Assembly: GCA_051748045.1 (NCBI GenBank)
Contig: JBNJGY010000045.1
Coordinates: 1-16,743 of the forward strand
DNA: 16,743 nucleotides
Direction of reading: 5' to 3'
Origin: Thermotogota bacterium
GTDB lineage: Bacteria > Thermotogota > Thermotogae > Petrotogales > Petrotogaceae
A program made the position numbers and the translations under genes. Of this stretch, positions 1 through 16,743 are shown piece by piece (position 1 is the stretch's first letter; each line of letters opens with the position of its first letter). A model generated the notes under the pieces. That model had not been told where the DNA came from. It worked only from the letters and a program-made list of their open reading frames with translations, and searched no databases.

Positions 1-69
1 GGAACTGGTCATGCATTGTTTTTTGAAAGAATAACAGACTTTATGAAAATTATTAATGACTTTCTATGA
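1..69 (+). CDS. 3' end (partial) of an alpha/beta-fold hydrolase
   Basis: Not in the ORF track. Frame +1 from base 1 reads GTGHALFFERITDFMKIINDFL-TGA, the typical C-terminus of alpha/beta hydrolases (catalytic His in GH, then E and a final helix ending FL). A terminator hairpin follows directly. Confidence 0.8.
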   Translation, partial: GTGHALFFERITDFMKIINDFL

Positions 70-74
70 TAAAT

Positions 75-114
75 AAAATGGTGGATATATAAAAATATAT
101 ATCCACCATTTTTT
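75..114. terminator. Bidirectional intrinsic terminator between convergent hydrolase and TetR genes
   Basis: Perfect 17-bp inverted repeat AAAATGGTGGATATATA (75-91) / TATATATCCACCATTTT (96-112) with a 4-nt loop and A/T runs on both sides, lying between two convergent stop codons. Confidence 0.9.
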
Positions 115-1237
115 ATTTTTTTATTCCGTTTATCATATGACATTTTAATTCTTTAATTATTTCTTTTTCGTCTAGTATTTTTTCTAAATAAAACTTTTCA
201 ATACCCATATAATGAGATATACCCATTAATATATTAGATATTAATACATTAGAATTATATTTTATATCTTTCAAATTTTTCAAATAACCTTTTTCAAAAC
301 TTTCATAATAATCTTTAACGTCTTTATTTACGACAAATTCTGCTTCTCTAACTATTTCATAATAATCTTTGTTTTGAGAGAAGAACTTCAAAAATAAATA
401 GATACCCCTTAGCTCTTTTTCAAATCTATTTATAGAACTTGTAGTATTTTTAGTGATAAATCTTCTTGTTACTTTACTAATCTTTTTAACTATGGTAGAT
501 AAAAATTCTTCTTTAGAATTAAAATAAATATAAAAGGTTCCAATGGCATAACCAGCGTCTTTAACTATATCATAGATATTTACATTATAATATCCTTTAC
601 TCCCAAATAACTCTATACCTGATTTTAATAATCTATTTCTTGTATCATCTCTTTCTTTTTTATCAACACAATCTGTATCTTCATCAAAAACATTATCAAA
701 GTTTACTTCTTGATTATAAAAAATACCATTTAAAATAATTTCTTTTAATTGATTTTTTTGATATTCTTTTCCATTAAAGAGATTCCTTATGTTGATAAAC
801 CGAGTAGCGCCTGCAATATATAGATATTCAGCTTCAGAAATGTCTCTATTAAAAATTCTAGAAATTCCTGTTATATAAATTCTTCTCAATCTTTTTTCGT
901 ATTCCGGAAATCTATATTGAGCTTCTCTATATATAATAATCTGTTTTCTATATTTAAGAGCGCTTTCAATAACAATATCCAAAAATTTATTTAATCTATC
1001 TTCTATAGTAACTCCACGAATTGAATTAAATTCTCTTTCGAAAAATTTAATTATTTCATTAAGCTGATATTCAAATATTCCTTTTTTGTTCCTAAAATAT
1101 CTATAAAAAACTCCATTAGAAACCCCTGCTTCCCTACATATTTCAGCTACAGAAACAGTTTCAAACCACTTTTTTGAAAACAAATCACGTGAGGCATCTA
1201 TTAACTTTTCTAATGTTTCTGTTCTTCTCCTAGACAT
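113..1237 (-). CDS. TetR/AcrR-family transcriptional regulator with two tandem TetR modules
   Basis: N-terminal HTH (LIDASRDLFSKKWFETVSVAEICREAGVSNGVFYRYFRNK) and a second HTH near aa 197 (TRNRLLKSGIELFGSKGYYNVNIYDIVKDAGYAIGTFYIYFNSKEE). 374 aa is about twice a normal TetR. RBS AGGAG upstream of the ATG. Confidence 0.92.
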   Translation of the reverse strand: MSRRRTETLEKLIDASRDLFSKKWFETVSVAEICREAGVSNGVFYRYFRNKKGIFEYQLNEIIKFFEREFNSIRGVTIEDRLNKFLDIVIESALKYRKQIIIYREAQYRFPEYEKRLRRIYITGISRIFNRDISEAEYLYIAGATRFINIRNLFNGKEYQKNQLKEIILNGIFYNQEVNFDNVFDEDTDCVDKKERDDTRNRLLKSGIELFGSKGYYNVNIYDIVKDAGYAIGTFYIYFNSKEEFLSTIVKKISKVTRRFITKNTTSSINRFEKELRGIYLFLKFFSQNKDYYEIVREAEFVVNKDVKDYYESFEKGYLKNLKDIKYNSNVLISNILMGISHYMGIEKFYLEKILDEKEIIKELKCHMINGIKK

Positions 1238-1250
1238 CTTAAAGACTCCT

Positions 1251-2957
1251 TTAAGCTAAAAAACTAAGTAATTCTTTCTTGAATAATTCTGGATCTTCTA
1301 TTATTATAGAATGACCAACATGTTCATAATATTTTAATTCTCCATTTAATTTTTCTAATGTTTTTTTTGCCATATCTTTGCTTACTAATAAATCTTTTTT
1401 ACCAACGAAATAAAGAACTGGATTTTTAAAGTTTTCAGCAATATCAGAATAATCATAAGATTCTAAAGCTCTTGCGTTTTCAGTAAAGCATCTAGGATTC
1501 ATTAAAATTGCTTCATTAGTCAATATATTTAACATTTTTTTATCATTAGAAGATGGCATGGTTCCTTTTAATGAACTTTTTAATAATGATTTACTTGTTT
1601 TTAGTAGTTGTAATCCATTATAATTTTCTTCAGGAGTATTTAATCCATCAACAGGGGCTGAATCAACTAAAACCAATTTTTTAACCATTTCTGGATTATT
1701 ATAAGCTAAAGATTGAGCAACAGCTCCTCCAAGTGAATGAGCAACTAATATTGCTTTTTCTATTCCAATATTTTTCATAAATGCTTTAACATAATCAGCA
1801 TAAGTATCTATTTCAATATTTTCAATTCTATCAGAATGCCCAAAATTAGGTAAATCTAAAGCATAAGTTTTATAACCTTTTAAATCATTTACTTTATCAA
1901 ACCATCTATGTGAACCAAAGTTACCATGTATCATTATAACAGGTTCACCATTACCATTAACATTATAGTAAATATCTTTCCCATTAACAGTGGTTTTTTG
2001 AGAAGGTTTTGATTTTTCCTTCCAAATAAATTTAGTTATTTCAATAACAGGTCTTTCAAAATATTTATAATATCCCATGATTATTCCATATATTAATCCT
2101 TTTGGGAAGAATAAAACAAATATTATTAATAAAGTACCAAATATTACAGACATTGGTATATCAGTTCTTGAGAATAAGAAAGGCATTCCTGTTATAATAA
2201 ATGCTCCAATTAATCCACCCTCAATCGAAGCTAATCCACCTATTACAATCATTGCCAGTAAATTTAAAGATGTTGCTAGTGCAAAATCTGTAGGACCAAT
2301 ATAACCAATTGTATGAGCATATAATGCTCCAGCAATACCACCATAAACTGCAGAAACTATGAAAGCTTCTAATTTTGTTGTTGATATCCTCTTACCAAAA
2401 GATCTAGCTGCATATTCACTGTCCCTAGTCATTTGATAAGATATTCCATTTGGTGATTTGATTAATTTAGTTGCTATATAAGATAAAACTACATAAAAGG
2501 CTAAATTCAGTACATACATCCAAAAATCATTAGGCATTATATCTGGTATATCTCTAAGACCTATATGTCCTCCAAATACTTCTACTGAAGCTATCAGCTG
2601 TTCTACTGTAATACCAAAAGCCATAGTTGCAATAGCCAAATAGAAACCTTTTAATCTAAGTGCTGGAATTGATATAATTGCACCTAATACTCCAGAAAAG
2701 ACAATTGCTACAATTAAATTTAAAATAAAAGGAGTTCCAAAAGTTAAAGACATATAAGCTGTTGTATAAGCTCCTATTGCCATAAAAGCTGCATGTCCAA
2801 TTGACAATTGCCCTGTATATCCTATAAGGATATTTAATCCCATTGAGGCTATACCAAAAATAAATACTGAAGATAAAATCATTAAAAAGAATGATTCTTG
2901 TATGAAAATTATACCTAATAATAAACCAAAAATTAATAATAAAACTGATTTCTTCAT
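1251..2957 (-). CDS. LivM-like ABC permease fused to a C-terminal alpha/beta-hydrolase
   Basis: aa 1 to ~295 are hydrophobic with LivM motifs (GYTGQLSIGHAAFMAIGAY, LRLKGFYLAIAT, MIVIGG). aa ~320-568 form a hydrolase with HGN oxyanion motif, ALDLPNFGHS, nucleophile AHSLGG, GKKD acid and HVGH His. One uninterrupted ORF. Confidence 0.9.
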   Translation of the reverse strand: MKKSVLLLIFGLLLGIIFIQESFFLMILSSVFIFGIASMGLNILIGYTGQLSIGHAAFMAIGAYTTAYMSLTFGTPFILNLIVAIVFSGVLGAIISIPALRLKGFYLAIATMAFGITVEQLIASVEVFGGHIGLRDIPDIMPNDFWMYVLNLAFYVVLSYIATKLIKSPNGISYQMTRDSEYAARSFGKRISTTKLEAFIVSAVYGGIAGALYAHTIGYIGPTDFALATSLNLLAMIVIGGLASIEGGLIGAFIITGMPFLFSRTDIPMSVIFGTLLIIFVLFFPKGLIYGIIMGYYKYFERPVIEITKFIWKEKSKPSQKTTVNGKDIYYNVNGNGEPVIMIHGNFGSHRWFDKVNDLKGYKTYALDLPNFGHSDRIENIEIDTYADYVKAFMKNIGIEKAILVAHSLGGAVAQSLAYNNPEMVKKLVLVDSAPVDGLNTPEENYNGLQLLKTSKSLLKSSLKGTMPSSNDKKMLNILTNEAILMNPRCFTENARALESYDYSDIAENFKNPVLYFVGKKDLLVSKDMAKKTLEKLNGELKYYEHVGHSIIIEDPELFKKELLSFLA

Positions 2958-2959
2958 AC

Positions 2960-3841
2960 TCAGACTCTCCCTTCAAATTTAGATCCAAAGAGGCCTGTAG
3001 GTTTAACAACAAGCACTACGATTATTAAAATCAATATTATAGATAATTGATAATCTGGGGATATATAATACCCAACTAATTTTTCCATTATACCTAATAA
3101 TAATCCTCCAACTATAGCTCCAAATAAGTTATAAAATCCACCTAAAACTCCAGCAGTAAACCCATATAATTGGTAATTAACCATCATATTGGGATGAACA
3201 TTAGTTTTAGGTGCTGCTAATACAGCAACTAAAGCAGCTAATCCGATACCTATTCCCCATACAATTGAGTCAACCTTATTTATATTAATACCTACCACAC
3301 TAGCTCCTACTTCATCTTGTGATCTTGCTCTGATAGCGGTTCCTAATTTAGTATATTTTAAGAATAAAGCCAAAGCAATTGTAACTGATAAAGCAATAAC
3401 CATGTTTACCAAATCATTCATAGGTAATACTAATAAACTGTCTCCTAAGTTAAATAATAAAGGAGCGCTTTCTGTTATCTGTGGAAATTGATAATAGTCA
3501 GTTCCCCAAATAATTATTGCTAATCCTTCAAATATCATTAATAATCCTAAAGTTATAATAAGCATTGCTCCATGAGATAGATGTTTAACTGGTCTCATCA
3601 AAAACTTTTCTATTAGTTGAGCTAAAATAAAACCAAATAAAATAGCTCCTATAATAGCAACAAAAATATTTTGTGTCCACCCATATACGGTAAAAGCAAA
3701 AAATGCAGACATCATACCAGCAGATCCATGAGCAAAGTTCATAACAAATACTGTTTTAAATATTAAAGCAATCCCAAAAGCCATTAATCCATATAATGCA
3801 CCTTGAGGTATGCCTAATAAGACATTTTGTATAAAAGCCAT
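2960..3841 (-). CDS. LivH-like branched-chain amino acid-type ABC permease
   Basis: Motifs GALYGLMAFGIALIF..VMNFAHG, TKLGTAIRA, GVLGG, KPTGLFG. ATG at 3841 preferred over TTG at 3844 because it sits 4 nt from the GGGGTGA RBS, the same spacing as the binding-protein gene. Confidence 0.92.
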   Translation of the reverse strand: MAFIQNVLLGIPQGALYGLMAFGIALIFKTVFVMNFAHGSAGMMSAFFAFTVYGWTQNIFVAIIGAILFGFILAQLIEKFLMRPVKHLSHGAMLIITLGLLMIFEGLAIIIWGTDYYQFPQITESAPLLFNLGDSLLVLPMNDLVNMVIALSVTIALALFLKYTKLGTAIRARSQDEVGASVVGININKVDSIVWGIGIGLAALVAVLAAPKTNVHPNMMVNYQLYGFTAGVLGGFYNLFGAIVGGLLLGIMEKLVGYYISPDYQLSIILILIIVVLVVKPTGLFGSKFEGRV

Positions 3842-3851
3842 CAAATCACCC

Positions 3852-4544
3852 CTATATTCCTAAATACGCTTTTTTAACTGATTCATCATTCAATAAATCT
3901 TTTGCGTTTCCTTCTGTTGCTACTTTACCAATTTCTAATATATATGCTCTATCACTTATTTTCAATGATTTTAATGCATTTTGTTCTACTAAAAGTATCC
4001 CAACATCCATTTCTTTTAACTGAACCAAAACTTCAAAAATTTCATCTGTTATTAAAGGAGCTAATCCTAATGAAGGTTCATCCAGCATTAATATTTCTGG
4101 AGAACTCATTAAAGCTCTTCCAACTGCAAGCATTTGTTGTTCTCCACCTGATAATGATCCAGCTGCTTGTTTTTTTCTATCATTTAAAATAGGAAACAAT
4201 TTATAAACTTTTTGAAAGTTTTCTTTTTCATTACCTCTTACAAAACTACCTAACTTTAAATTTTCTTCTACAGATAACTGTGGAAAAACTCTTCTGTTTT
4301 CTGGAGCTAAAACTAATCCCTTTTTTACTTTTTCTTCTGTAGATGCTTTTGTCAAATTTTCTCCATTAAATTCAATATTTGCAGAGGATTTTATTATTCC
4401 CATAGTACCGAATAAAGTAGATGTTTTTCCTGCGCCATTAGCTCCAAGAATACTAACAATTTCACCTTTATCAATATTAAAAGAAATATCTTTTACAGCA
4501 GCAACATGACCATAATTTACTTTTAAATTATTAACTTTAAGCAT
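3852..4544 (-). CDS. LivF-like ABC transporter ATP-binding protein
   Basis: Walker A GANGAGKT, signature LSGGEQQM, Walker B LMLDEPSLGLAP, VEQN switch typical of LivF. Confidence 0.95.
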   Translation of the reverse strand: MLKVNNLKVNYGHVAAVKDISFNIDKGEIVSILGANGAGKTSTLFGTMGIIKSSANIEFNGENLTKASTEEKVKKGLVLAPENRRVFPQLSVEENLKLGSFVRGNEKENFQKVYKLFPILNDRKKQAAGSLSGGEQQMLAVGRALMSSPEILMLDEPSLGLAPLITDEIFEVLVQLKEMDVGILLVEQNALKSLKISDRAYILEIGKVATEGNAKDLLNDESVKKAYLGI

Positions 4545-5292
4545 TTTCGCTCTCCCCCAAATACACTTTTATAACTTCTTCGTTGTTTCCTATTTCTTCT
4601 GGTGTTCCTTCAGCAATTTTTTCACCAAAACTCATAACAGTAATTCTATCTGAAACTTGCATAACTAAATTCATATCATGTTCAACTAGTAAAATGGTTT
4701 TACCGTTATTTTTTAATAATTTCATTATATCTCTAATTTCTGAGGTTTCGTTATGATTCAACCCTGCTGCGGGTTCATCAAACAATAAAATTTTTGGATT
4801 GGATACAATTGCTCTAGCAATTTCAACTCTTTTTAAAATACCATAAGGAAGTGATGATGGATAAGAATTTAATCTATTTTTTATTTGTAATAATTCAGCA
4901 ATTTCTAAAATTTTCTCCCTTGCTATTGTTTCAAAATGTGATCTTTTTTTAGAAAAAAGGTAAAATATATTTTTATCATAATTATGTAGATAACCAGATA
5001 ATATGTTGTTATAAACATTCATCCCTTTAAATAACTGTAAGTTTTGGAATGTTCTACTTATGCCTTTATATATAATTTGATCCGGTCTAGTTTGCATTAA
5101 AGAATTTCCTTCAAAATTAACTTCTCCCTCTACAGGTTCCAAAACTCTAGTAATTACATTAAATAATGTAGTTTTCCCAGCACCATTAGGACCTATTAAA
5201 GAGTGAATAATTCCTTTTTTCACATTCATACTCATATCTTTTACAGCTATCAAACCACCAAAAGATACAGTGACATTTTTAACTTCTAACAT
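4537..5292 (-). CDS. LivG-like ABC transporter ATP-binding protein
   Basis: Walker A GPNGAGKT, RTFQN, LPYG signature, LLFDEPAAG, VEHDM. Overlaps the next gene by 8 nt. Confidence 0.95.
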   Translation of the reverse strand: MLEVKNVTVSFGGLIAVKDMSMNVKKGIIHSLIGPNGAGKTTLFNVITRVLEPVEGEVNFEGNSLMQTRPDQIIYKGISRTFQNLQLFKGMNVYNNILSGYLHNYDKNIFYLFSKKRSHFETIAREKILEIAELLQIKNRLNSYPSSLPYGILKRVEIARAIVSNPKILLFDEPAAGLNHNETSEIRDIMKLLKNNGKTILLVEHDMNLVMQVSDRITVMSFGEKIAEGTPEEIGNNEEVIKVYLGESENA

Positions 5293-5310
5293 TTATAATT
5301 ACACCCCTTT

Positions 5311-5337
5311 AAAAAAGCGGGGAAGTTTATTCCCCGC
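5311..5337 (-). terminator. Intra-operon GC-rich hairpin with U6 tail after the binding-protein gene
   Basis: GCGGGGAA (5317-5324) / TTCCCCGC (5330-5337), 5-nt loop. AAAAAA at 5311-5316 is a U6 tail on the minus-strand transcript. Confidence 0.8.
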
Positions 5338-5352
5338 ATTATTTAAATATGA

Positions 5353-6522
5353 TTAATATTCCATGTAGTATAGCCAGTCAGTTACTTTTTCAAATACTCC
5401 ATCTTTAATTTCCATAATGTACATAGAATCTTTACCAATTCTTGAAATATCTTTGTTAGGTCCTTCAAAGTCATAATAAGTAACACCTGTTGTTATGTCT
5501 CCTGACCAATTATCAAAAGTTTCTAAGGCGTCAACTAAAGTTTCTCTTGTTAGGTTATCTCCAGCTCTTTTTACGCCTTCTGTAAAAGTTTCAGCAGCTA
5601 TTAATCCTGCTACAGCGTAAGCGTTTGGAATTTCACCATTATTATATTTACCATAAATTTCTAATGCTGGAGTATCAGGGTCTGTGAAGTCTACATCAAC
5701 CCATGCCATTGATTTAACTCCTTCTGCATCTTTTCCTAATAAGTCAATGAATGAAACACTTGCGTTTGCATATGAAGTTACGTATTCAACATTTTTTAAG
5801 CCATATTGTTTAGCTTGTTTAATGAAGTTTGGTGCTTGTGTTCCATAAAGCATAACTCCAATAGCTTCCGGTCTGTTAGAAATTAATCTTGTAACTTCTG
5901 CTGAAAAATCTTCTGCGGAAGGATTTACTGGAATGAAAGTAGCATTAATTCCTCTTGATTCAAATAATTCTTTTGCTGCGTCTCTGAATTCTTTACCATC
6001 ATCTGCATTTCTGTAAACAATTGCAATTTTTGTATATCCAATATCAGCAAAATAATTAGCAACAATGTTTCCTTCTACAGTATAGTTTGGTTGAACTGGA
6101 AAAATGAATTCTTTAGCTGGGAAACTTAATAATGATGTTCCCGCACCTTGATAAACAAAAGGTACTTCATTACTGTTTAGATATTCCATAACAGCTAAAA
6201 CACCTGGTGTTCCTAATCCCCCAACAATTGAAAAAACCTCATCACTTTCAACTAATCTTTTTACTTCAACTGTTGTTTTTGCTGGTGAAAATTGGTCATC
6301 TGCTACTAGTAAGTTAATTTTTCTTCCGTTTACTCCTCCATTATCGTTTACCCAATTAAAGTATGCTTCCATACCTTTTGTCATAGGTTGTCCGATAAAT
6401 GATATAGGACCAGATAAAGCTTGGAAAGAACCAATGAGAATTTCATCATCTGTTACTCCAACTTCAGCAAAAAGTCCCACTACCATGAGTAAAGCTACCA
6501 TAAGTGTTAATACCTTTTTCAT
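5353..6522 (-). CDS. ABC transporter substrate-binding protein, LivJ/LivK (periplasmic binding protein type 1) family
   Basis: Signal peptide MKKVLTLMVALLMVVGLFA|EVGVTDDEILIG, then ALSGP and VNDNGGVNGRKINLLVADDQFSP typical of the HAAT family. RBS GGGGTGA. Confidence 0.92.
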   Translation of the reverse strand: MKKVLTLMVALLMVVGLFAEVGVTDDEILIGSFQALSGPISFIGQPMTKGMEAYFNWVNDNGGVNGRKINLLVADDQFSPAKTTVEVKRLVESDEVFSIVGGLGTPGVLAVMEYLNSNEVPFVYQGAGTSLLSFPAKEFIFPVQPNYTVEGNIVANYFADIGYTKIAIVYRNADDGKEFRDAAKELFESRGINATFIPVNPSAEDFSAEVTRLISNRPEAIGVMLYGTQAPNFIKQAKQYGLKNVEYVTSYANASVSFIDLLGKDAEGVKSMAWVDVDFTDPDTPALEIYGKYNNGEIPNAYAVAGLIAAETFTEGVKRAGDNLTRETLVDALETFDNWSGDITTGVTYYDFEGPNKDISRIGKDSMYIMEIKDGVFEKVTDWLYYMEY

Positions 6523-6533
6523 AAGATCACCCC

Positions 6534-7742
6534 TTATTTTATATTACGTACTACAACTGCAGTACCCATGCCTCCTCCAATACAGAGAGAAGCCAATCCA
6601 ATTTCTTTTTCTTGTTTTTTCATTTCGTGTAGTAAAGTTACAATGATTCTGTTTCCTGACGCACCTATTGGATGTCCTAATGCTATTGCTCCACCATTTA
6701 CATTAGTTCTTTCAATAAACCAATTTTTATCTTTACCAAATTCTTGGCCTAATTCTTTAATTACTCCTAAAGATTGTGCAGCGAATGCTTCGTTTAATTC
6801 GATTAATTCTATATCCTCTATAGAAATATCGTTTTTACTTAAAACATTTTTTACAGCAGGAACTGGTCCTAATCCCATGTATGCTGGGTCTACTCCTGCT
6901 TCATCATAAGCAACTAATTCAGCGATTGGTTTTAGATTATATTTTTCTACAGCTTCTTCAGATGCTAATATTATAGCACTTGCACCATCGTTAATCCCAG
7001 AAGCATTAGCAGCTGTAACAGAACCATCCTTTTTGAATGCAGGTCTTAGTTTTGCTAAACCTTCTATTGTTGCGTTTAATCTTGGGTGTTCATCAGTATC
7101 AAAAAGAAGTGTACCTTTTCTTGTTTTTATTTCATAAGGTATAATTTCATCTTTAAATTTTCCTTCTTCGATTGCTTTTTGAGTTCTATTTTGAGAAATA
7201 ACAGCAAATTCATCTTGTTCTTCTCTAGATAAATTGTGTTTTTCTGCAATATTTTCTGCCGTCATTCCCATGTGATAGTTATTAAAAACATCAGTTAATC
7301 CATCTAAAATCATATGATCAAGCATTTTTTGATGACCAAATTTACTTCCAAATCTATTTTTAGAATCAATCATTAAAGGCGCTTGTGACATATTTTCGAT
7401 CCCAGCTGCAACTACTATTTCTGCGTCTCCAACTTTTATATCAGTAGCTCCAATCATAACTGATTTCATACCACTTCCGCAGAGCATATTAACAGCGTAA
7501 GCGGGTTTATTTTCAGGAATACCTGCATATAAAGCTACTTGTCTACCTGGACCCATTCCTTCGCCAGCTTGTAGAACATTACCTACTATTGTTTTATCTA
7601 CATAATCTGGTTTAACATTTGATTCTTCTAAAATTGTTTTAACTACATGAGCACCTAATTTTGTAGCTGGTTCATTTTTTAATGTACCACCAAAAGTTCC
7701 AATAGCAGTTCTCTTAGCAGCAACTATAAATACTTTTCTCAA
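6534..7742 (-). CDS. Acetyl-CoA C-acetyltransferase (thiolase II; ThlA/AtoB/PhaA-like)
   Basis: Catalytic motifs NMLCGSG, NASGINDGA, ELNEAFA, GGAIALGHPIGASG, LCIGGGMG. TTG start with GGAGGA RBS. Confidence 0.95.
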   Translation of the reverse strand: MRKVFIVAAKRTAIGTFGGTLKNEPATKLGAHVVKTILEESNVKPDYVDKTIVGNVLQAGEGMGPGRQVALYAGIPENKPAYAVNMLCGSGMKSVMIGATDIKVGDAEIVVAAGIENMSQAPLMIDSKNRFGSKFGHQKMLDHMILDGLTDVFNNYHMGMTAENIAEKHNLSREEQDEFAVISQNRTQKAIEEGKFKDEIIPYEIKTRKGTLLFDTDEHPRLNATIEGLAKLRPAFKKDGSVTAANASGINDGASAIILASEEAVEKYNLKPIAELVAYDEAGVDPAYMGLGPVPAVKNVLSKNDISIEDIELIELNEAFAAQSLGVIKELGQEFGKDKNWFIERTNVNGGAIALGHPIGASGNRIIVTLLHEMKKQEKEIGLASLCIGGGMGTAVVVRNIK

Positions 7743-7754
7743 GACAATTCCTCC

Positions 7755-9071
7755 TTATAATATGTAACCAATTTCTTTTGCTTCCTTTTTCAATTGATCT
7801 CTAAAATCTGGATGAGCTATTGAAATTAATAATTCAACTCTTTCAGCTAAACTCTTTCCTCTTAAATGAGCTACTCCATATTCAGTTACTACATAATCTA
7901 TATCATGTCTTGGAACTGATATCGTTGCACCTCTTGGATGAGCTACAGTAATTGTCGATATTTTACCGTCTTTAGCAGTAGATCTTAAAGCTATTATTCC
8001 TTTTCCGTTCTTACTTTTTATAGCTCCTCTATGAGTATCGAGTTGGCCACCTGTTCCAGAAAATTGTTTTGTACCTATAGCTTCACTCACAACTTGTCCT
8101 TGTAGATCCACAGAAATTGCAGTATTTATAGAAACCATATTATCATTTTGTGCTATTACATATGGATCATTAACATAATTACCTTTCATTACCCAAACTC
8201 CAGGATTATTATTCAACCATTTATACATTCTTTTTGAACCAAGTGCAAATGTACAAATTGATTTACCTTTCCAAAGTGTTTTATTAGTATTCGTTATTGC
8301 TCCACTTTCAAAAAGATCTATCATTGATTCTGTAAACATTTCAGTATGTACACCAAGATCTTTTTTATGATCAAGAAGTTTTGCAACTGCATTAGGAATT
8401 CCACCAATTCCAATTTGGATAGTTGATCCATCTTCCACTAAATCAGCAATAAACTGAGCAATTGTTATTTCTGTTTCCGTTGGTTCTACAATTGGTAGTG
8501 GTGGTACTTCCCAACTGCTTTCAACAATCATATCAGCTTTGTTAATATGTACACCAGTTTCTCCGTGTATAAAAGGCATTTGATCATTAACTTCAAAAAT
8601 AACTTTATCTGCTTGTTCCATTACTTCCATTTCATAAACATTAGATAAACCTAAATTAAAAAAACCATTTTCTTCAAGCATTGGAGCTACAGCACCCCAA
8701 AAAACTAATGTTCTTCCTTCTTCTTTCTCTGCAACTAATTTATCAGTTCCAGCCATATGTAAGTTGTTAGGTATATAATCTACTGTTTTTAAATCATTTT
8801 TTCTTGCTTTTCTTGTTGGTGGGCTGAAAAACCAAGAATGATTGTTCATTTTGTCTTCATATTCTTTGTCTGCAAAAAAAGGATATTCTTTCATATTTAA
8901 ACAAGTCAAAACTCTTAGTGAATCAAAGTGATCTTTATATTTATGAACATTGCTTAAAAAACCTTGAGCTTCTGTTGCGGCTAATCCAACAACTACTGTT
9001 ACTGTTTTTGGCAATGATAATATTGCTTCTTCTATAGATTTTAATTTATTATTATATACATCTTTCCACAT
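7755..9071 (-). CDS. Acetyl-CoA hydrolase/transferase family protein (4-hydroxybutyrate CoA-transferase Cat2/AbfT-like)
   Basis: DGSTIQIGIGGIPNAVA, LGVHTEM (catalytic Glu), SGTGGQLD, DYVVTEYGVAHLRGK, LISIAHPDFR. Confidence 0.9.
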   Translation of the reverse strand: MWKDVYNNKLKSIEEAILSLPKTVTVVVGLAATEAQGFLSNVHKYKDHFDSLRVLTCLNMKEYPFFADKEYEDKMNNHSWFFSPPTRKARKNDLKTVDYIPNNLHMAGTDKLVAEKEEGRTLVFWGAVAPMLEENGFFNLGLSNVYEMEVMEQADKVIFEVNDQMPFIHGETGVHINKADMIVESSWEVPPLPIVEPTETEITIAQFIADLVEDGSTIQIGIGGIPNAVAKLLDHKKDLGVHTEMFTESMIDLFESGAITNTNKTLWKGKSICTFALGSKRMYKWLNNNPGVWVMKGNYVNDPYVIAQNDNMVSINTAISVDLQGQVVSEAIGTKQFSGTGGQLDTHRGAIKSKNGKGIIALRSTAKDGKISTITVAHPRGATISVPRHDIDYVVTEYGVAHLRGKSLAERVELLISIAHPDFRDQLKKEAKEIGYIL

Positions 9072-9091
9072 TTATTATCCCCTCACAATTC

Positions 9092-9832
9092 TTATAATAC
9101 TGTACCACCATTTACACTTAAAACATGCCCTGTTATATAAGATGCTTCTTCTGAAGCTAAGAAAAATACAGCATCTGCAATTTCTGATGATTCACCCATT
9201 CTGCCTAAAGTAACTTTTTTTGCTATCGCGTCTAATACTTTTTCAGGCATTTTTTCTGTCATAGGAGTTTTTATAAATCCTGGAGCAACTGCATTCACTC
9301 TTATATTTGCACCTTTTCTTGCAAATTCTTTAGCCCATGAATATGTCATTGAAATAACTCCACCTTTAGTTGCAGCATAGTTAGTTTGTCCGATATTTCC
9401 TTTTTCTCCAACTATAGAAGAGATATTCACTACATTACCTTCACCATTTTCTAACATCGTTGGAACTATCGCTTGTGTCATATTGAAAACACCCTTTAAG
9501 TTAACGTTTAATACGAAATCCCAATCTTCTTCTGACATTTTTTGAATTAAAGCGTCTCTTGTTACTCCTGCATTATTAACTAATATATCTATTTTTCCAT
9601 ATTCATTTTTTACATTATCTACAAATTCTTTTATAGCATCTCTATTAGTAACATCTAAAACATAGCCTTTTACATTAGAAAATTCTTTTTCGACTTCTTT
9701 TAAAGCTTCTTCATTCATATCAATAGCGAAAACCACTTTTGCTTCTTCTTTAGCCATTTTAGAAACTATTGATAAACCAATTCCTCTTGCTCCACCTGTA
9801 ACGACACATACTTTGTCTTTCATTCTATTCAT
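9092..9832 (-). CDS. Classical SDR, FabG/PhaB-like 3-oxoacyl (acetoacetyl)-CoA/ACP reductase or 3-hydroxyacyl-CoA dehydrogenase
   Basis: TGGARGIG, NNAGVTRD, NISS, GNIGQTNYAATK (YxxxK), VNAVAPGFIKT. Confidence 0.9.
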   Translation of the reverse strand: MNRMKDKVCVVTGGARGIGLSIVSKMAKEEAKVVFAIDMNEEALKEVEKEFSNVKGYVLDVTNRDAIKEFVDNVKNEYGKIDILVNNAGVTRDALIQKMSEEDWDFVLNVNLKGVFNMTQAIVPTMLENGEGNVVNISSIVGEKGNIGQTNYAATKGGVISMTYSWAKEFARKGANIRVNAVAPGFIKTPMTEKMPEKVLDAIAKKVTLGRMGESSEIADAVFFLASEEASYITGHVLSVNGGTVL

Positions 9833-9865
9833 GATGATACCTCCTAATGTATTTTGAAATTTTTA

Positions 9866-10879
9866 TTAACCTTTATATTCTCCCCAATGAACATGAGCTG
9901 CGGCCCAAACAAACCCTATTCCAGCTCCAACCATTATTACATCGTCTCCATCGTGAAGTCTTCCTTCTTCAAGCGCTATTTTCATTGATAAAACTTGATC
10001 ATTTTGTCCTATGTGCCCATATTTTTGAAGATATGTAGTTTGATCTTCTTCTAAACCAAATTCTTCAATAACAGCATCATGAGATGATTTCTTGAAATGT
10101 AAAATAGCTAAATAATCAATATCTTTATCTGTTTTATCAGATTCTGCTAATGCTTCTCTGATAACTGCATAGAAATTAGGCATAGTTCTTTCACCAAGTT
10201 TTTGTTTAAATGAATCAACATCATCTATAACAAAATGCATTTTATCTGCATCTTCTGGTTTCATAGGCCAATTTTTTGTTCCACCAACAGGTACAACACA
10301 ATCTTCAGAAAAATCACCGTCTCCTTTGAATGCAGTTCCTAAAATAACATTTTTATTAAAGTCTTTCCTAAGCAACATAGCAGCTCCACCAGCTCCTATA
10401 TCGAACATAAAAGATGTTTCAGCTACTTTATAATCTATTAAATCTCCGTTTCTATAACCACTTACTAGTAAAGCGGTTTTATATTTTTTATTTCCCAATA
10501 ATAATGATTTTGCTGTTTCCATTCCAGCCATCATAGAACCACACATTGCTTCCATATCAAAACCCCAAGCATTTTTAGCTCCTATTTCGTCAGCAACTTT
10601 CAAACTAGCTAACCAACATGGATAATCTTTGTGCTGGGCTCCATTCCAGATTACAATATCAATTTCTTCAGGATTAATTCCTGATTCCTCAATAGCTTCC
10701 TTAGCAGCTTGAATTCCCATATAACTTGTTGTATCTTTTTTTCCTGGAATAGGTTTTTTACTAACTCCAAATTTTTCTCTAATAACCCATTCTGGTATAC
10801 CTGATTTTTCTGCTATTTCATCAGATGTAATATAATTATCCGGAATGTATATTCCCATTCCCATTATTCCAACGTTCAC
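9866..10879 (-). CDS. FabH/KAS III-like (thiolase-fold) enzyme with a non-canonical active site
   Basis: GMGIYIP N-terminus, catalytic AMCGS, GAGGAA, LAILH, YGHIGQNDQ where FabH has YGNT, and C-terminal VGAGIGFVW. GTG start with GAGGTGA RBS. Confidence 0.88.
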   Translation of the reverse strand: MNVGIMGMGIYIPDNYITSDEIAEKSGIPEWVIREKFGVSKKPIPGKKDTTSYMGIQAAKEAIEESGINPEEIDIVIWNGAQHKDYPCWLASLKVADEIGAKNAWGFDMEAMCGSMMAGMETAKSLLLGNKKYKTALLVSGYRNGDLIDYKVAETSFMFDIGAGGAAMLLRKDFNKNVILGTAFKGDGDFSEDCVVPVGGTKNWPMKPEDADKMHFVIDDVDSFKQKLGERTMPNFYAVIREALAESDKTDKDIDYLAILHFKKSSHDAVIEEFGLEEDQTTYLQKYGHIGQNDQVLSMKIALEEGRLHDGDDVIMVGAGIGFVWAAAHVHWGEYKG

Positions 10880-10925
10880 TTTAAAATCACCTCTTTATTA
10901 ATCTAATAAAAACCATATATTATAT

Positions 10926-10943
10926 AATGAATCACTTCTCATT
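10926..10943. promoter_or_regulatory. Candidate TetR operator O1 (AATGA-N8-TCATT)
   Basis: AATGAATCACTTCTCATT is an imperfect palindrome overlapping the -10 box and the predicted transcription start. Confidence 0.6.
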
Positions 10944-10969
10944 TTAATATATTTTAATCTTTTTTTCAA
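10941..10969 (-). promoter_or_regulatory. Predicted sigma70-type promoter of the 10-gene operon
   Basis: Minus strand reads TTGAAA (10969-10964), 17 nt, TAAAAT (10946-10941), about 60 nt upstream of the GTG start. Confidence 0.7.
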
Positions 10970-11051
10970 GAGTGATTTTTTAGGGTTTAGAGATAAACAA
11001 CATTAATTATTATTAAATATATTAATAATATTTAAATTTGTGCATTTTTGA

Positions 11052-11069
11052 AATGATTCGCCTCTCACT
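11052..11069. promoter_or_regulatory. Candidate TetR operator O2 (AATGA-N8-TCACT)
   Basis: AATGATTCGCCTCTCACT is 14/18 identical to O1 and lies 126 bp from it. Confidence 0.5.
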
Positions 11070-11081
11070 AATGTTCTCATT

Positions 11082-11114
11082 AAAAAAGACGGTTTTTTAA
11101 AAACCGTCTTTTTT
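11082..11114 (-). terminator. Intrinsic terminator overlapping the end of the PfkB-like gene
   Basis: AAAAAAGACGGTTTTT (11082-11097) / AAAAACCGTCTTTTTT (11099-11114) inverted repeat spanning the TAA at 11097-11099, with a U6 tail on the minus strand. Confidence 0.8.
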
Positions 11115-11855
11115 TTCTAATGTTTTAATCTTATTATACGCGCCTTTAATTTCATTTGTCATCTCAATCTTTTCAATAATTTTATATAAATTATTATTAC
11201 TGATTCTATTCTTTAAATAATAATCTATAAAAATTACATCTAAAAGATCGCCAGTACCAAATTTATACTTAAATTTTTTCCCGTTTGAAGGATAGAATTC
11301 ATCTTTATAATAAAAACCTTCTATATCCATTTTTCCAAGAGCAATGAGATCTGTTGATATTTCACTATCTTTATTAGATATTAGAATATGATTATCTTTT
11401 TTAAAATAATTTTTCAGAATAAAATGCCTAGGCCCACTGTCAATAAAAATCAACTTATAATCTAAATTGATAATTTTATCGAAATCATTTTTATTAATTT
11501 CCGTATTTACAAAAGCATATTCAGCTTTTTTTTGTGGGAATTTAATATCTTTTTCATTATTATTTCTCTGAATTGCAAAAGGCTTTTCATTTTGGCTAAT
11601 AAAAATATCTGATTTTTCATTTCTAATATTTAGTAAATCTATATTTATACCTTTATCTTTTAATATTTTTAAAGTCGTATTGGCATTTTCATCATTACCA
11701 ATATTTCCAATAAATCTAACTTTATTTTTCAATATGGATAGTCCTAGAGCAATATTAAAACCAGATCCACCAGGAAATATATCAATTTGTTTTTTATGAG
11801 GTGTATCACCATTTATATAAATATCTGTAAATACACCCCCATAAACGTCAATCAT
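11097..11855 (-). CDS. Divergent PfkB/ribokinase-family carbohydrate kinase
   Basis: PGGSGFNIALGLSILKNKVRFIGNIGND matches PfkB signature 1. GTGD matches the anion-hole/catalytic Asp motif. Short (252 aa) and degenerate in the middle. Confidence 0.72.
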   Translation of the reverse strand: MIDVYGGVFTDIYINGDTPHKKQIDIFPGGSGFNIALGLSILKNKVRFIGNIGNDENANTTLKILKDKGINIDLLNIRNEKSDIFISQNEKPFAIQRNNNEKDIKFPQKKAEYAFVNTEINKNDFDKIINLDYKLIFIDSGPRHFILKNYFKKDNHILISNKDSEISTDLIALGKMDIEGFYYKDEFYPSNGKKFKYKFGTGDLLDVIFIDYYLKNRISNNNLYKIIEKIEMTNEIKGAYNKIKTLEKKDGF

Positions 11856-11856
11856 T

Positions 11857-12963
11857 TTAAATTTTTATTAAATTATAATCAGTTGTTCCCATTCCCATTT
11901 CTTCACCATAACTTATTTGCACATAACCTTGAGAATTTTCTCTCATGCCAACGAACTTATCCTTTCCAGGTTCAAAGTTATTTTTTAGATGAGATCCTTC
12001 AAAACCATGTTGATTATTTACTAGATCATAGCAAGCTTTATCCAAAGCTATTGGATCTTTTGAAGCTAAAATACCAATATCTGGAACTATTGGTGCATCA
12101 GACCAAGGAGCACAATCACAGTCCGGAGTTACTTTCATAACAAAATTAATATAGCCAACTTTATCTTTTTTATTTTTTACAGCACCATATGCGTATTCTG
12201 TCATTCTTTCCATAAAGTCTTTTATTTCTGTTTTCCAATTAACCCCTATAGCATCTACAGGACAAACTTGCATACATTCTCCACAACCTATACATTTACT
12301 AACGTCTATTTGTGCTTTTCCTTCAATCATAGTAATTGCATTTTCAGGGCAGTTATTTACACATGTTTGGCATCCTATACAAGAATCTTTATCAACTTTT
12401 GGCCTCATAGAATGTTGTTGCATTTTTCCTACCCTTGGAGCACAACCCATGGCAATATTCTTTAACGCTCCACCAAATCCAGCAAGCTCATGACCTTTAA
12501 AATGAGACATAACAATCATGCTATCTGCATTTTCTATATCTCTTGCTATTTTAACTGTTTTAAAATTTTTTTGATTAATCTCAACATCAGATATATTTTT
12601 ACTCAACATTCCATCTGCAATAATAACAGGAGCACCAATAACTGAGTATACAAAACCGTGTTCAGTAGCAGTTACCAAATGATCAACAGAATTTTTTCTC
12701 TCACCTTTATATAAGGTATTTGTATCAGTTGCAAAAGGTTTACCTTTCGCTTCTTTTACCTTATCTACAACTGGTCTTACAAATACAGGACTTATAAATC
12801 CGTCATTACCTCTTTCGCCAAAATGAATTTTTATTGCAGTTAAATCATTTTCACTTATCAAATCTGCAAATCCTGCTCTTTCAAATAATCTTTTAATTTT
12901 ATTTACTTTATTATCTTGCGGTTTTCTAGCTCTTAAATCTGCAAAATAAACTTCTGCTGCCAT
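11857..12963 (-). CDS. DUF362-domain Fe-S protein with an inserted 2x[4Fe-4S] ferredoxin domain
   Basis: AIKIHFGE, TDTNTLY, SHFKGH..GFGGALKN.AMGCA, two CxxCxxCxxxCP motifs (CIGCQTCVNNCP, CIGCGECMQVCP), PDCDC, DIGILASKDPIALD. Confidence 0.88.
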   Translation of the reverse strand: MAAEVYFADLRARKPQDNKVNKIKRLFERAGFADLISENDLTAIKIHFGERGNDGFISPVFVRPVVDKVKEAKGKPFATDTNTLYKGERKNSVDHLVTATEHGFVYSVIGAPVIIADGMLSKNISDVEINQKNFKTVKIARDIENADSMIVMSHFKGHELAGFGGALKNIAMGCAPRVGKMQQHSMRPKVDKDSCIGCQTCVNNCPENAITMIEGKAQIDVSKCIGCGECMQVCPVDAIGVNWKTEIKDFMERMTEYAYGAVKNKKDKVGYINFVMKVTPDCDCAPWSDAPIVPDIGILASKDPIALDKACYDLVNNQHGFEGSHLKNNFEPGKDKFVGMRENSQGYVQISYGEEMGMGTTDYNLIKI

Positions 12964-13044
12964 AATAACACCTCCGGAAAATTTTAAATCAACCCTATAT
13001 ATATTATAATATAATTAATAAATAAATTATAGGGAGGAAGAAAA

Positions 13045-13794
13045 ATGAATTTATATGATGATTTTTCTAAAATTTATAATAATAAGTATTTAGAATACAG
13101 TAAAAAAATGTCAGAAATTTTCCCGTTATTAATAAAAAACTACACTGATAAAACTGATAATATTTTAGATCTAGCTTGTGGAGAAGGTACTTTTTGTAGA
13201 GAGTTAACAAAAAAGGGTTTTCAAGTTGAAGGGGTAGATCTGTCAGAGCAACAAATAGAAAATGCCAAAAAAAAGTCGAAAAAAGAGGATTTAAATATTA
13301 ATTTCTATAATGAAAATATAATTGATTTTAAAATTGATAAAAAATATGATGTTATAACAAGTTGGTTTGACTCACTAAATTATATCATTCATAAAAATGA
13401 TATCAAAAAAGTATTCATAAATACTTTTAACATGTTGAATGATAATGGAGTTTTTATGTTTGATATGAACACTATACATGGTTTGATAACTTTATGGAAT
13501 GACCTTCCTTATTATATTTTTGAAGATACAGATGACTTATTCGAAGTTCACAAATCTGATTATGATTACGAAAATAATTTAGCATACATGAAAATTATCT
13601 TTTTCTTGAGACGAGATAATAATAAATGGGAAAAATTCGAAGAAGAACACATTGAAAAAGGTTATAAAAAAACAGAAATCAACGAGTTGTTGACTTCTGT
13701 TGGTTTTAATGAAATTTATTTTTATGGAAATTTAAACCCTTTATTACCTGATTCAGAAGAGTCTAATAGAATGTATGTTGTTGCAATAAAATAA
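13045..13794 (+). CDS. Class I SAM-dependent methyltransferase
   Basis: Motif I ILDLACGEG, GVDLS, YDVITSWFDSLNY, L..NGVFMFD, EEEHIEKGY. RBS AGGGAGG. Confidence 0.92.
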   Translation: MNLYDDFSKIYNNKYLEYSKKMSEIFPLLIKNYTDKTDNILDLACGEGTFCRELTKKGFQVEGVDLSEQQIENAKKKSKKEDLNINFYNENIIDFKIDKKYDVITSWFDSLNYIIHKNDIKKVFINTFNMLNDNGVFMFDMNTIHGLITLWNDLPYYIFEDTDDLFEVHKSDYDYENNLAYMKIIFFLRRDNNKWEKFEEEHIEKGYKKTEINELLTSVGFNEIYFYGNLNPLLPDSEESNRMYVVAIK

Positions 13795-13796
13795 AT

Positions 13797-15074
13797 CTAT
13801 TTTTTATCTCTACCTTCAAGAATTTCTATAATCAGATTATCTATTTTGTCCATACCTTTTAAATTTATTTTTGAAATATTTTTAATACTATCGCTACAAC
13901 AATCCCCTAAGAATCCTTGGTTTTTTTCAACATATATATTATTCATAGCCATAACAGCTGACATATAAGCTTCATGAGTTGCTATTCCAACTCTAAAAGC
14001 ACAACTTTCTTTTGCTCCATCGCACAAAACACCGGTAGTGTTGGAAATCATTGTATCTATAGCATTAATAGTACTTTTTTCATCAAGATCTTCTAAAAAA
14101 CAAATTCCTGCAGTAGCCCCAGCTCCAGCAGAATAGAACGCTCCACAAATAGGAGCTAGTTTACCAACCAAAAATTTTATATAACCAGAAAGCATATGAC
14201 TTATTGCTAAACCTTCAGCGATTTTTCTTTTATCTTTATTATGGTACATACCGTATAAGTATACAGGTATTGTAGTAGCTATGCCTTGATTTCCTGATCC
14301 ACCAGAGCTCATAATATCTACTAATTCTCCATTCATCCTTGTGTATGAAGCAGCAGTGGAATATTTTCTAATTTTTTCATTCAAAATTTTTTCAGAAAAT
14401 ATTCTATTCAAACCATTTCCAGTTTTTTTTACACCTTCACTTTTTAATTCTAAAGTGAATTTTGCTGCATTAATATTAGTTTTAGCCCCCAAAAATAACT
14501 CTTCAATATCTTCATCATCTATTTTTTTAGCTGCCTCATGAATATCATTTAAGTCAATATTTTCTAAATTGTATTTCTTGAAAAAATCAACATTGTTGTT
14601 TTTATTCCCATCATTCTTAAAAATAGTAGTTTTATTTTTTCTTATTAACATTATGTTTGAATGGCCACCATCTATTATTACTTGTATATCATTTTCTAAA
14701 CTATCAGTTATTAAAGTATTTACATAAACACCATTTCTATTATTGGGTTTTATTGAGATGATCTCATTTTTTACCATTTCTCTGGCTAATTTTTGATGCT
14801 CTGGTTTTGTATGGTGTAAAATTTGTAAATCTTCTTTTACACTCTTTATAATTGTACCTAAAGCTGCAGCGATTTTGTTACCTCTTTCTCCATTTGCACC
14901 CGGTATTTTAACATACTTCCCATTTTTATAAATACTTTTGCTAACTTCTATTTCAATTTTCTTTATTTTTTTTTCAATATACTTATTTGCTATAAAAGTA
15001 GATAAAGCAACAGCTGCTGGCTCTGTACATCCAGTTGATAGCTTTACTTCTTCTCTAATGTACTCTTTAATCAA
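13797..15074 (-). CDS. L-cysteine desulfidase CyuA/YhaM-like (serine dehydratase alpha-like Fe-S lyase)
   Basis: STGCTEPAAVAL, IYKNG..VKIPG, RMNG..IMSSGGSGNQGI, GKLAPICG, GVLCDGAKESCA. TTG start with GGAGGGA RBS. Confidence 0.82.
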   Translation of the reverse strand: MIKEYIREEVKLSTGCTEPAAVALSTFIANKYIEKKIKKIEIEVSKSIYKNGKYVKIPGANGERGNKIAAALGTIIKSVKEDLQILHHTKPEHQKLAREMVKNEIISIKPNNRNGVYVNTLITDSLENDIQVIIDGGHSNIMLIRKNKTTIFKNDGNKNNNVDFFKKYNLENIDLNDIHEAAKKIDDEDIEELFLGAKTNINAAKFTLELKSEGVKKTGNGLNRIFSEKILNEKIRKYSTAASYTRMNGELVDIMSSGGSGNQGIATTIPVYLYGMYHNKDKRKIAEGLAISHMLSGYIKFLVGKLAPICGAFYSAGAGATAGICFLEDLDEKSTINAIDTMISNTTGVLCDGAKESCAFRVGIATHEAYMSAVMAMNNIYVEKNQGFLGDCCSDSIKNISKINLKGMDKIDNLIIEILEGRDKK

Positions 15075-15111
15075 AATTATCCCTCCAAAATATTATTAAG
15101 TGTCATTAATA

Positions 15112-15140
15112 AGTTTATATCAACTCTTTCTTTTTTTCAA
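15112..15140 (-). promoter_or_regulatory. Predicted promoter of the desulfidase-like gene
   Basis: Minus strand TTGAAA (15140-15135), 17 nt, TAAACT (15117-15112). An overlapping TG-n-TATAAA extended -10 is also possible. Confidence 0.5.
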
Positions 15141-15284
15141 TTCTTTATAATGAAATATATTTCATGCTAGACTCAATATTTAGCCCTAACAAGCTGTCAT
15201 TATATATGACTATATTTATTACTTAAGTGTATATTAATTTAAATAATATTTTGCTATATTATGTTGAATTAACTAAATTTTAAC

Positions 15285-15322
15285 TTGACTTATGTTTTAT
15301 AGTGTATTAATATATTAATACA
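15285..15322 (+). promoter_or_regulatory. Predicted promoter of the NlpC/P60 gene overlapped by a perfect 20-bp palindrome
   Basis: TTGACT (15285-15290), 17 nt, TAATAT (15308-15313). Palindrome TGTATTAATATATTAATACA at 15303-15322. Confidence 0.45.
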
Positions 15323-15358
15323 GTAATATTCGTGATGGTGTAAATGGGGGTGTTTAAG

Positions 15359-16642: not shown

Positions 16643-16666
16643 ACTTTTATAAAGTCTACCTTTTTT
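16637..16666 (+). terminator. Intrinsic terminator overlapping the stop codon
   Basis: AGGTAGACTTT (16637-16647) / AAAGTCTACCT (16651-16661), followed by a T run. Confidence 0.85.
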
Positions 16667-16706
16667 GACATTTTATTCCAAAATATGACAGTTTGTCTTA
16701 ATTCGC

Positions 16707-16735
16707 TTGTAGTTTTAACAATAAAGTTATATAAT
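16707..16735 (+). promoter_or_regulatory. Predicted promoter for a gene beyond the right edge
   Basis: TTGTAG (16707-16712), 17 nt, TATAAT (16730-16735), downstream of the terminator. Confidence 0.55.
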
Positions 16736-16743
16736 ATAAATAT

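Follow-up and report, generated by a model that had tools for sequence, protein, structure and literature searches.

What is a serine hydrolase doing at the end of a permease of the branched-chain amino acid type? The question is raised by a single gene within a 16,743-nucleotide stretch of DNA (the window) from a Thermotogota bacterium of the Petrotogaceae (assembly GCA_051748045.1, contig JBNJGY010000045.1, positions 1 to 16,743), in which the coding sequence of a LivM-type permease from an ATP-binding cassette (ABC) importer runs in frame through a linker into that of an alpha/beta hydrolase. The explanation that we favor, and to which we assign a probability of about 0.5, is that the importer takes up an ester, that the hydrolase tethered at its cytoplasmic side would cut this ester as it leaves the transporter, and that enzymes encoded in the same operon would finish its breakdown. 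The gene and its parts are listed below, with conservation given for an alignment of 108 fused homologs that are 41–90% identical to the window protein.

1251..2957, minus strand: the whole fused gene, LivM-type permease, helical linker and alpha/beta hydrolase; 568 amino acids plus stop, ATG start
2097..2957, minus strand: permease domain, residues 1–287; ten predicted membrane helices and a cytoplasmic coupling loop at 168–190
1998..2096, minus strand: linker, residues 288–320; basic helices at 288–300 and 302–315, no stop and no usable internal start
1254..1997, minus strand: alpha/beta-hydrolase domain, residues 321–568
1920..1928, minus strand: oxyanion-hole motif His344-Gly345-Asn346 (HGN), invariant in 108/108
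1734..1736, minus strand: nucleophile Ser408, codon TCA, in AHSLGG (residues 406–411); Ser in 108/108
1392..1394, minus strand: codon of the triad acid Asp522, in GKKD (residues 519–522); Asp in 108/108
1311..1313, minus strand: codon of the triad base His549, in HVGH (residues 546–549); His in 108/108

Both halves of the protein match their families over essentially the whole profile. Pfam BPD_transp_2 (PF02653) matches residues 25–282 (E 3.3e-34; 118.7 bits against a cut-off of 26.8) and spans profile positions 3–269 of 269, and Abhydrolase_1 (PF00561) matches residues 339–556 (E 4.4e-26; 92.5 bits against a cut-off of 25.8) and covers positions 2–245 of 245. They lie in a single open reading frame, in DNA whose G+C content of 27–30% makes stop codons frequent, and the gene matches the window's own genome at 100% as one open frame. 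Near the junction is the charged linker segment FIWKEKSKPSQK (residues 310–321; 1993–2030). Beyond the last membrane helix (269–283), in-frame methionines come first at M294, which still belongs to the linker, and then at M342, where the hydrolase core has already begun; the fused gene therefore cannot yield the hydrolase domain on its own. The initial annotation of this DNA had described an in-frame fusion with neither a stop nor an evident internal start at the domain boundary, and both points hold, with the two Pfam domains carried on one 568-residue frame and the motifs lying exactly where it had put them. The nucleophile elbow Sm-X-Ser-X-Sm is present as A-H-S408-L-G-G, and by analogy with the fold we take Ser408 to sit at this elbow, Asp522 to be the acid after strand 7, His549 to be the histidine after strand 8, and the HG of HGN to belong to the oxyanion hole. 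The permease reaches 128.5 bits on the LivM subfamily model (NCBIfam NF008450), below its cut-off of 366; its domain content and the make-up of the operon point to a member of the HAAT family (presumably TC 3.A.1.4) and not to an ortholog of Escherichia coli LivM.

The same design is present in many relatives. Among 5.8 billion proteins, a word-indexed search found 2762 relatives of the fused protein; nearly all of the 120 best protein clusters listed are 557–606 residues long, and at least 119 of these 120 carry both Pfam domains. Named sources are Marinitoga, Petrotoga, Kosmotoga, Thermosipho, Pseudothermotoga and Tepiditoga, together with Spirochaetes and Bacillota metagenome-assembled genomes (MAGs). 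An exhaustive HMMER search of 1.84 billion representatives at 50% identity gave eight full-length fused representatives, 40–47% identical, and the fused family is therefore compact; a scan of genome contigs with the single protein returned one close relative. Inspection of related genomes and of reads had been proposed in the initial annotation. The domain boundary is crossed in one stop-free frame in 92 of 151 Thermotogota genomes, the window's own included, several of those with an uninterrupted fusion being single-contig assemblies, and a DNA contig assembled from a public run spans 1644–3100, and with it the junction, with six substitutions and no insertion or deletion (this contig may derive from the source sample and carries little weight). 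We regard it as virtually certain that the fusion is real.

Within the 108-homolog alignment, H344, G345, N346, S408, G410, D522 and H549 are all invariant, which supports selection on the predicted catalytic residues, and the spacing from G287 to H344 is 52–62 residues in 104 of the 108. Several further occurrences of the gene were noted. In one genome (G026:C40:23459-25147) the full-length fused gene contains two in-frame TGA codons, and this copy could be a pseudogene, a sequencing error or a case of recoding. Within 1631–3100, short pieces of the gene recur, unchanged or almost so, on contigs from the salt-lake metatranscriptomes of two studies; none of these contigs bridges the junction, and they are no proof of transcription. 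The best DNA contig holder for 1631–3100 is labeled as a soil metagenome.

The role that can be proposed for the hydrolase depends on the side of the membrane on which it lies, and three independent lines of evidence (charge, other LivM fusions and free-standing orthologs) indicate that it very probably faces the cytoplasm. An AlphaFold2 model of the fused protein, built on the 108-homolog alignment (mean pLDDT 92.5, pTM 0.79), has ten membrane helices, a linker formed by two helices (pLDDT 83–92) rather than by a disordered tether, and a classical alpha/beta core. First, positive charge is concentrated in the segments predicted to be inside. The tail at 284–320 averages 8.5 Lys plus Arg with a net charge of +7.2 in the 108 homologs, and loops 168–190 and 100–103 average 4.1 and 1.9 Lys plus Arg; the alternate loops, assigned to the outside, are neutral or acidic save for one conserved Arg in 262–268. 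The model also places two short helices at 169–186, in what we take to be the position of the family's ATPase-contacting loop. Second, we picked 13 proteins of 580–629 residues with the LivM match first from among the 150 best representatives, and all 13 have a complete BPD_transp_2 followed by ABC_tran. An ABC ATPase must be cytoplasmic and here sits after LivM, so the LivM C-terminus is inside, and the hydrolase takes the same position. Third, 11 of 15 stand-alone hydrolase representatives start no more than 24 residues from the domain start, and signal peptides are absent from the split or stand-alone orthologs that were read in three other lineages. The initial annotation had judged the hydrolase probably cytoplasmic and LivM fusions to be mostly with the ATPase; the first of these is now well supported, albeit indirectly, and the second agrees with all of the long LivM-first proteins sampled. 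By sequence, the permease half gave only chance matches in the PDB, to TAL-effector repeats at E 1e-3 or weaker, and no solved permease homolog appears usable for topology.

As to what kind of enzyme this is, the sequence and the model place the domain among generic esterases, lactonases and C–C hydrolases of the serine alpha/beta class, and its activity is a prediction. Its best PDB sequence match is PhaZ of Bacillus thuringiensis (8ynv/8ynw; E 7e-18), an intracellular poly-3-hydroxybutyrate (PHB) depolymerase, with carboxylesterases, epoxide hydrolases and haloperoxidases closely behind, and its best NCBIfam model is NF050089, for intracellular short-chain polyhydroxyalkanoate (PHA) depolymerases, on which orthologs of the domain score 94–109 bits. 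Foldseek relates the model to solved esterases with a probability of 1.00 and target TM-scores of 0.73–0.85 over 257–300 columns; with the whole model the listed rows contain hydrolases only, and the comparison does not discriminate the substrate.

The genes around the fusion bear on the cargo. They form a minus-strand operon running from 10879 to 113 in the order KAS III-like enzyme, short-chain dehydrogenase/reductase (SDR), coenzyme A (CoA) transferase, thiolase, binding protein, LivG, LivF, LivH, fusion and double TetR regulator:

9866..10879, minus strand: KAS III-like enzyme, 337 amino acids, first gene of the operon (NCBIfam NF005308, 469 bits against a cut-off of 315; PDB relatives)
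9092..9832, minus strand: SDR, 246 amino acids, FabG- or acetoacetyl-CoA-reductase-like (NCBIfam; best PDB matches 4nbt and 4nbu, E about 2e-75)
7755..9071, minus strand: family-I CoA-transferase, 438 amino acids (Pfam AcetylCoA_hyd_C and AcetylCoA_hydro)
6534..7742, minus strand: thiolase of the acetoacetyl-CoA type, 402 amino acids (Pfam Thiolase_N and Thiolase_C; NCBIfam)
5353..6522, minus strand: substrate-binding protein, 389 amino acids, with a hydrophobic N-terminal leader (Pfam Peripla_BP_6, E 3.3e-60)
4537..5292, minus strand: LivG-type ATPase, 251 amino acids, with a BCA_ABC_TP_C tail (Pfam ABC_tran)
3852..4544, minus strand: LivF-type ATPase, 230 amino acids (Pfam ABC_tran)
2960..3844, minus strand: LivH-type permease partner, 294 amino acids (Pfam BPD_transp_2, E 2.1e-36)
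113..1237, minus strand: double TetR regulator, 374 amino acids, two complete TetR_N domains in one chain (Pfam), directly downstream of the fusion

The structures 4nbt and 4nbu are, we take it, NADH-dependent FabG homologs active on acetoacetyl-CoA. The closest solved relatives of the CoA-transferase are 4-hydroxybutyrate CoA-transferases (E 6.7e-97), and the thiolase scores 483–489 bits on the NCBIfam acetyl-CoA C-acetyltransferase models against 305–333 on the FadA models. Upstream of the operon, on the same strand, lie a short PfkB-like reading frame of 252 codons (11097–11855) that aligns with no more than the initial third of the kinase profile, and a gene for a DUF362 protein with two 4Fe-4S motifs (11857–12963); both are kept beside the operon in a genome of the same genus.

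The association of the hydrolase with its importer is preserved in other genomes, in several physical arrangements. We searched 32 loci from other Thermotogota genomes with the window proteins and took fuller gene tallies from the first 20, in all of which the binding protein, LivG, LivF and LivH directly precede the fusion or its split form. Of these 20 loci, 17 have the CoA-transferase, 17 the double TetR, 15 a close KAS III-like gene, 14 the SDR and 12 the thiolase. Across the full 32, the CoA-transferase is found in 26, and in many related loci the close KAS III-like homolog adjoins it. In one genus (g27; genomes G024 and G030) the permease (307–308 residues) and the hydrolase (251–252 residues) are separate adjacent genes with stops between them, the hydrolase being 42–47% identical to the fused domain and beginning directly with the core strand, without a leader; another genome (G027) has the same two separate matches. 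That the halves are adjacent even where split supports a functional partnership between them. The initial annotation had raised the prospect of a stop codon in the linker of relatives as the mark of an artifact; such stops do occur in this genus, as separate adjacent genes, and the artifact did not materialize. Candidate fusions with long linkers (open frames of 637–716 residues in G025, G028, G029 and G030) were dropped, G030 having several stops between the two genes.

Stand-alone forms follow the same pattern. On a metagenome contig of 62% G+C (L073) a leaderless 258-residue ortholog is the last gene of a Liv-type operon, and in Mesotoga (L059 and L060) a stand-alone hydrolase follows a paralogous Liv system whose neighbors are again the CoA-transferase, thiolase and TetR genes. 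A metagenome scan kept 80 loci, and a relative of the hydrolase is present in five of the six that were checked (L071, L072, L073, L087 and L138); the remainder are, to judge by the matched residues, ordinary LivM genes. Two of the five are of high G+C, and of these L073 has the KAS III-like gene, SDR, CoA-transferase, TetR, Liv system and hydrolase, and L138 a subset. In all three arrangements, fused, split and stand-alone, the loci read keep the hydrolase in the company of a Liv-type importer. Database names of the stand-alone relatives are 'alpha/beta fold hydrolase', a permease label and, once, 'pimeloyl-ACP methyl ester carboxylesterase'.

There are also additional importers and hydrolases near some of these loci. 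Two Petrotoga-like loci have a second, paralogous Liv-type importer beside the first (L042, 846–7257; L043, 9506–14894), behind which L042 has a further, stand-alone alpha/beta hydrolase, and a methyl-accepting chemotaxis protein is encoded in each locus. The Petrotoga-like clusters have two further alpha/beta hydrolases; a third hydrolase, PcaD-like, lies after the TetR gene. In the split genus a second alpha/beta hydrolase of 262–264 residues (L052, 12755–13543; L053, 12853–13647) overlaps the end of the first hydrolase gene; its best model is PcaD, at 112.6 bits. The Mesotoga orthologs (L059, 7992–9131, and L060, 7989–8954, both on the minus strand) have a poorly conserved N-terminal extension with a hydrophobic stretch. 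They are annotated in databases as 321 or 262 residues, the hydrophobic start being on the longer form. The stretch might serve as a signal peptide or as a membrane anchor, perhaps left over from the last LivM helix, or it might reflect a start called too far upstream.

These observations can be assembled into the following scheme. The LivM-type fusion, LivH, LivG, LivF and the Peripla_BP_6 binding protein would form an importer of the HAAT family, whose cargo, given a gene context that argues for a compound other than an amino acid, may be a small carboxylic ester and not a branched-chain amino acid. The likeliest candidate would be (R)-3-hydroxybutyrate as a dimer or short oligomer, or a comparable ester of a short 3-hydroxy acid. 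The tethered Ser408-Asp522-His549 hydrolase would cut the ester at the cytoplasmic exit of the transporter, the CoA-transferase would activate the hydroxy-acid products, the SDR would oxidize them to 3-oxoacyl-CoA, and the thiolase would cleave this to acetyl-CoA, with the double TetR protein controlling the operon. Several features fit, among them the types of the thiolase, SDR and CoA-transferase and the PHA-depolymerase matches given above. No acyl-CoA dehydrogenase and no crotonase or enoyl-CoA hydratase is found by Pfam among the operon proteins, so that entry of the substrate at the 3-hydroxy level fits, and the same route of CoA transfer, oxidation and thiolysis has been described for the anaerobic fermentation of 3-hydroxybutyrate in Ilyobacter. 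The genome (completeness 99.65%) has no match to PhaC_N, and the hydrolase therefore would not serve turnover of the organism's own polymer. In our view the substrate of the hydrolase is probably the imported compound itself or a direct derivative. The more specific proposal of a 3-hydroxybutyrate ester, drawn from the neighboring genes, is tentative and has somewhat less than an even chance. The initial annotation had proposed an ester-type cargo, and this survives in part: it fits the conserved CoA-transferase, SDR, thiolase and KAS III-like neighbors, and the sequence and fold of the domain give only a generic class.

Seven points weigh against this scheme or one of its parts. First, although NF050089 is the best NCBIfam model, it reaches 118.5 bits with the whole protein and 122.9 with the domain alone against a cut-off of 300, its alignment covers only model positions 5–177 of 288, and three unrelated neighboring hydrolases score 83–91 bits on it; on these grounds we do not assign the domain to the PHA depolymerases. 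Second, Foldseek matches the model at about E 1e-14 alike to an acyl-homoserine lactone (AHL) lactonase (Est816), PhaZ, aryl esterases, haloperoxidases, the C–C hydrolase BphD and an enol-lactonase, and the target TM-scores of the lactonase, aryl esterases, haloperoxidases and C–C hydrolases (0.81–0.85) exceed those of PhaZ (0.73–0.75). Third, the same genome has no match to an extracellular depolymerase of the Esterase_PHB type; lacking this as well as PhaC_N, the organism would therefore depend on oligomers released by others. Fourth, the relatives of the binding protein in the PDB are found only at E 1e-20 or weaker, and no ligand can be inferred from them. Fifth, the KAS III-like enzyme has no explained role in the scheme. 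Sixth, no CoA-transferase is encoded in the retrieved stretch of 6 of the 32 loci, three of these stretches (L044, L068 and L070) being shorter than 10 kb and ending at or near a contig end. Finally, the hydrophobic stretch in Mesotoga, if it is a real signal peptide, would put that version of the enzyme outside the cytoplasm.

The alternative that survives best keeps both the architecture and the cytoplasmic side and changes the cargo, to another hydroxy-acid ester, a lactone or a short amide that is opened after import and finished by the CoA-transferase, SDR and thiolase. This is possible, if on the unlikely side. The generic character of the structural neighbors just listed leaves room for such a cargo, as do the scores of 64–74 bits that the PcaD, BioH and MenH models reach on the domain, a further match to Pfam Hydrolase_4 (serine aminopeptidase S33), and the presence of extra PcaD-like hydrolases within the same clusters; the HAAT family, moreover, includes importers of amides and urea. 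The thiolase, SDR and CoA-transferase nonetheless indicate a short 3-hydroxy or 3-oxo acid as the product, leaving the alcohol part unnamed, and the clusters that were read hold no amidase-specific or nitrogen-handling gene.

A second alternative, and a distinctly unlikely one, is that the domain is an acyl-CoA thioesterase or acyltransferase that works later in the pathway and leaves the cargo untouched, the tether serving only co-localization or stoichiometry. It draws on the second-best NCBIfam model of the domain, an alpha/beta-fold acetyltransferase subunit of the AcoC type (92–94 bits), on a weak match to Pfam Thioesterase (E 0.0031), on the use of CoA esters by the pathway and on the KAS III-like putative acyltransferase that heads the operon. 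These family matches all lie far under their cut-offs, however, and an enzyme unrelated to transport has no obvious reason to track the permease through fusion, fission and a change of paralog.

Third, the domain could serve mainly to sense a ligand or to regulate the transporter, gating it through product-side inhibition, for instance, with catalysis secondary or absent. It is well known that subunits of ABC importers can carry regulatory domains at the C-terminus, receptors with the alpha/beta fold exist, one of them (DAD2) is among the Foldseek matches, and the linker is rigid in the model. We consider this very improbable all the same, as all 108 aligned homologs, down to 41% identity, keep the catalytic triad and the oxyanion motif unchanged, and free-standing orthologs would be unable to gate by a tether. 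The last alternative, an assembly or sequencing artifact or a strain-specific accident, might be suggested by the 158 contigs of the source assembly and by the one genus with separate halves, and can be dismissed in view of the 92 of 151 genomes, the at least 119 of 120 best clusters listed and the DNA contig bridging the junction.

Import of an ester followed by its hydrolysis at the inner face therefore stands as our preferred reading. A stronger form of it, which we hold to be doubtful, is vectorial hydrolysis, in which the active site would be docked at the cytoplasmic mouth of LivH and LivM, the ester would be cut while it emerges, and the system would be an uptake route of the Thermotogota for 3-hydroxybutyrate oligomers. 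If this were true, uptake would be irreversible and the intact cargo would never be held in the cell, and Thermotogota and similar anaerobes would scavenge 3-hydroxybutyrate oligomers from the storage polyester of other organisms by this route.

The interest of the locus does not depend on that form alone. Fusions of LivM to the ATPase are common, and fusion to an enzyme is the unusual part; to our knowledge, enzymes built into ABC importers are rare. The fused design is shared by most Thermotogota and appears to be unstudied. Public databases already hold these fused proteins under generic names, and in the literature covered, subscription journals lying outside it, nothing was found that describes the permease–hydrolase architecture or a system by which 3-hydroxybutyrate oligomers are taken up. 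One paper (PMC5674127) names a 'PHB depolymerase-like' gene, Kole_0508, which is unrelated. If the hydrolase acts on the cargo, the fusion would be a simple and widespread natural example of an importer that couples transport to chemical conversion at its inner face. The annotations 'branched-chain amino acid permease' and 'alpha/beta fold hydrolase' in most Thermotogota, some Spirochaetes and Bacillota MAGs would then be reassigned to an ester-uptake pathway, and the system would be a concrete candidate for the uptake by anaerobes of PHB fragments or similar esters. Since the enzyme exists naturally in fused, split and stand-alone forms, ready-made controls are at hand, and thermostable versions from cultured relatives should suit both biochemistry and cryo-EM.

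How, finally, does this system compare with those already known? The nearest relative in composition is E. coli LivHMGF with LivJ and LivK, together with the HAAT importers in general, which has the same five-part set (two BPD_transp_2 proteins, two ATPases with one BCA_ABC_TP_C tail, and a Peripla_BP_6 protein). In contrast to E. coli LivM, the fused permease carries an extra enzyme of 250 residues, and the neighbors here are enzymes of CoA esters instead of amino-acid genes. The LivM–LivG fusions likewise join a complete BPD_transp_2 domain through a linker to a cytoplasmic C-terminal domain, at a total near 600 residues, but in all 13 sampled what they append is the transporter's own motor, whereas here the appended domain is a serine hydrolase and LivG is a separate gene.

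Two metabolic systems resemble parts of the operon. The lower beta-ketoadipate pathway, with the enol-lactonase PcaD, the CoA-transferase PcaIJ and the thiolase PcaF, has the same order of chemistry, in that an alpha/beta hydrolase opens an ester or lactone and a CoA-transferase and a thiolase follow. It differs in that the CoA-transferase is of another family and an SDR step is added here; PcaD models score 66–74 bits on the domain and 112–122 bits on neighboring hydrolases, all below the cut-off of 255.85, and we know of no PcaD fused to a transporter. PhaZ shares the alpha/beta fold and nucleophile elbow with the domain; it is soluble, unlike the membrane-fused domain, and acts on the cell's own granules. 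The closest parallels in principle are the peptidase-containing ABC transporters (PCATs) and the peroxisomal ABCD and Comatose proteins, ABC transporters with a built-in hydrolytic activity that cuts the cargo in step with transport. The PCATs have an N-terminal cysteine peptidase, the ABCD proteins have a thioesterase activity in the transporter itself, and both have the exporter fold. The likeness is thus one of principle without homology, and the fusion described here differs from both in being a binding-protein-dependent importer that carries a serine alpha/beta hydrolase at its C-terminus.

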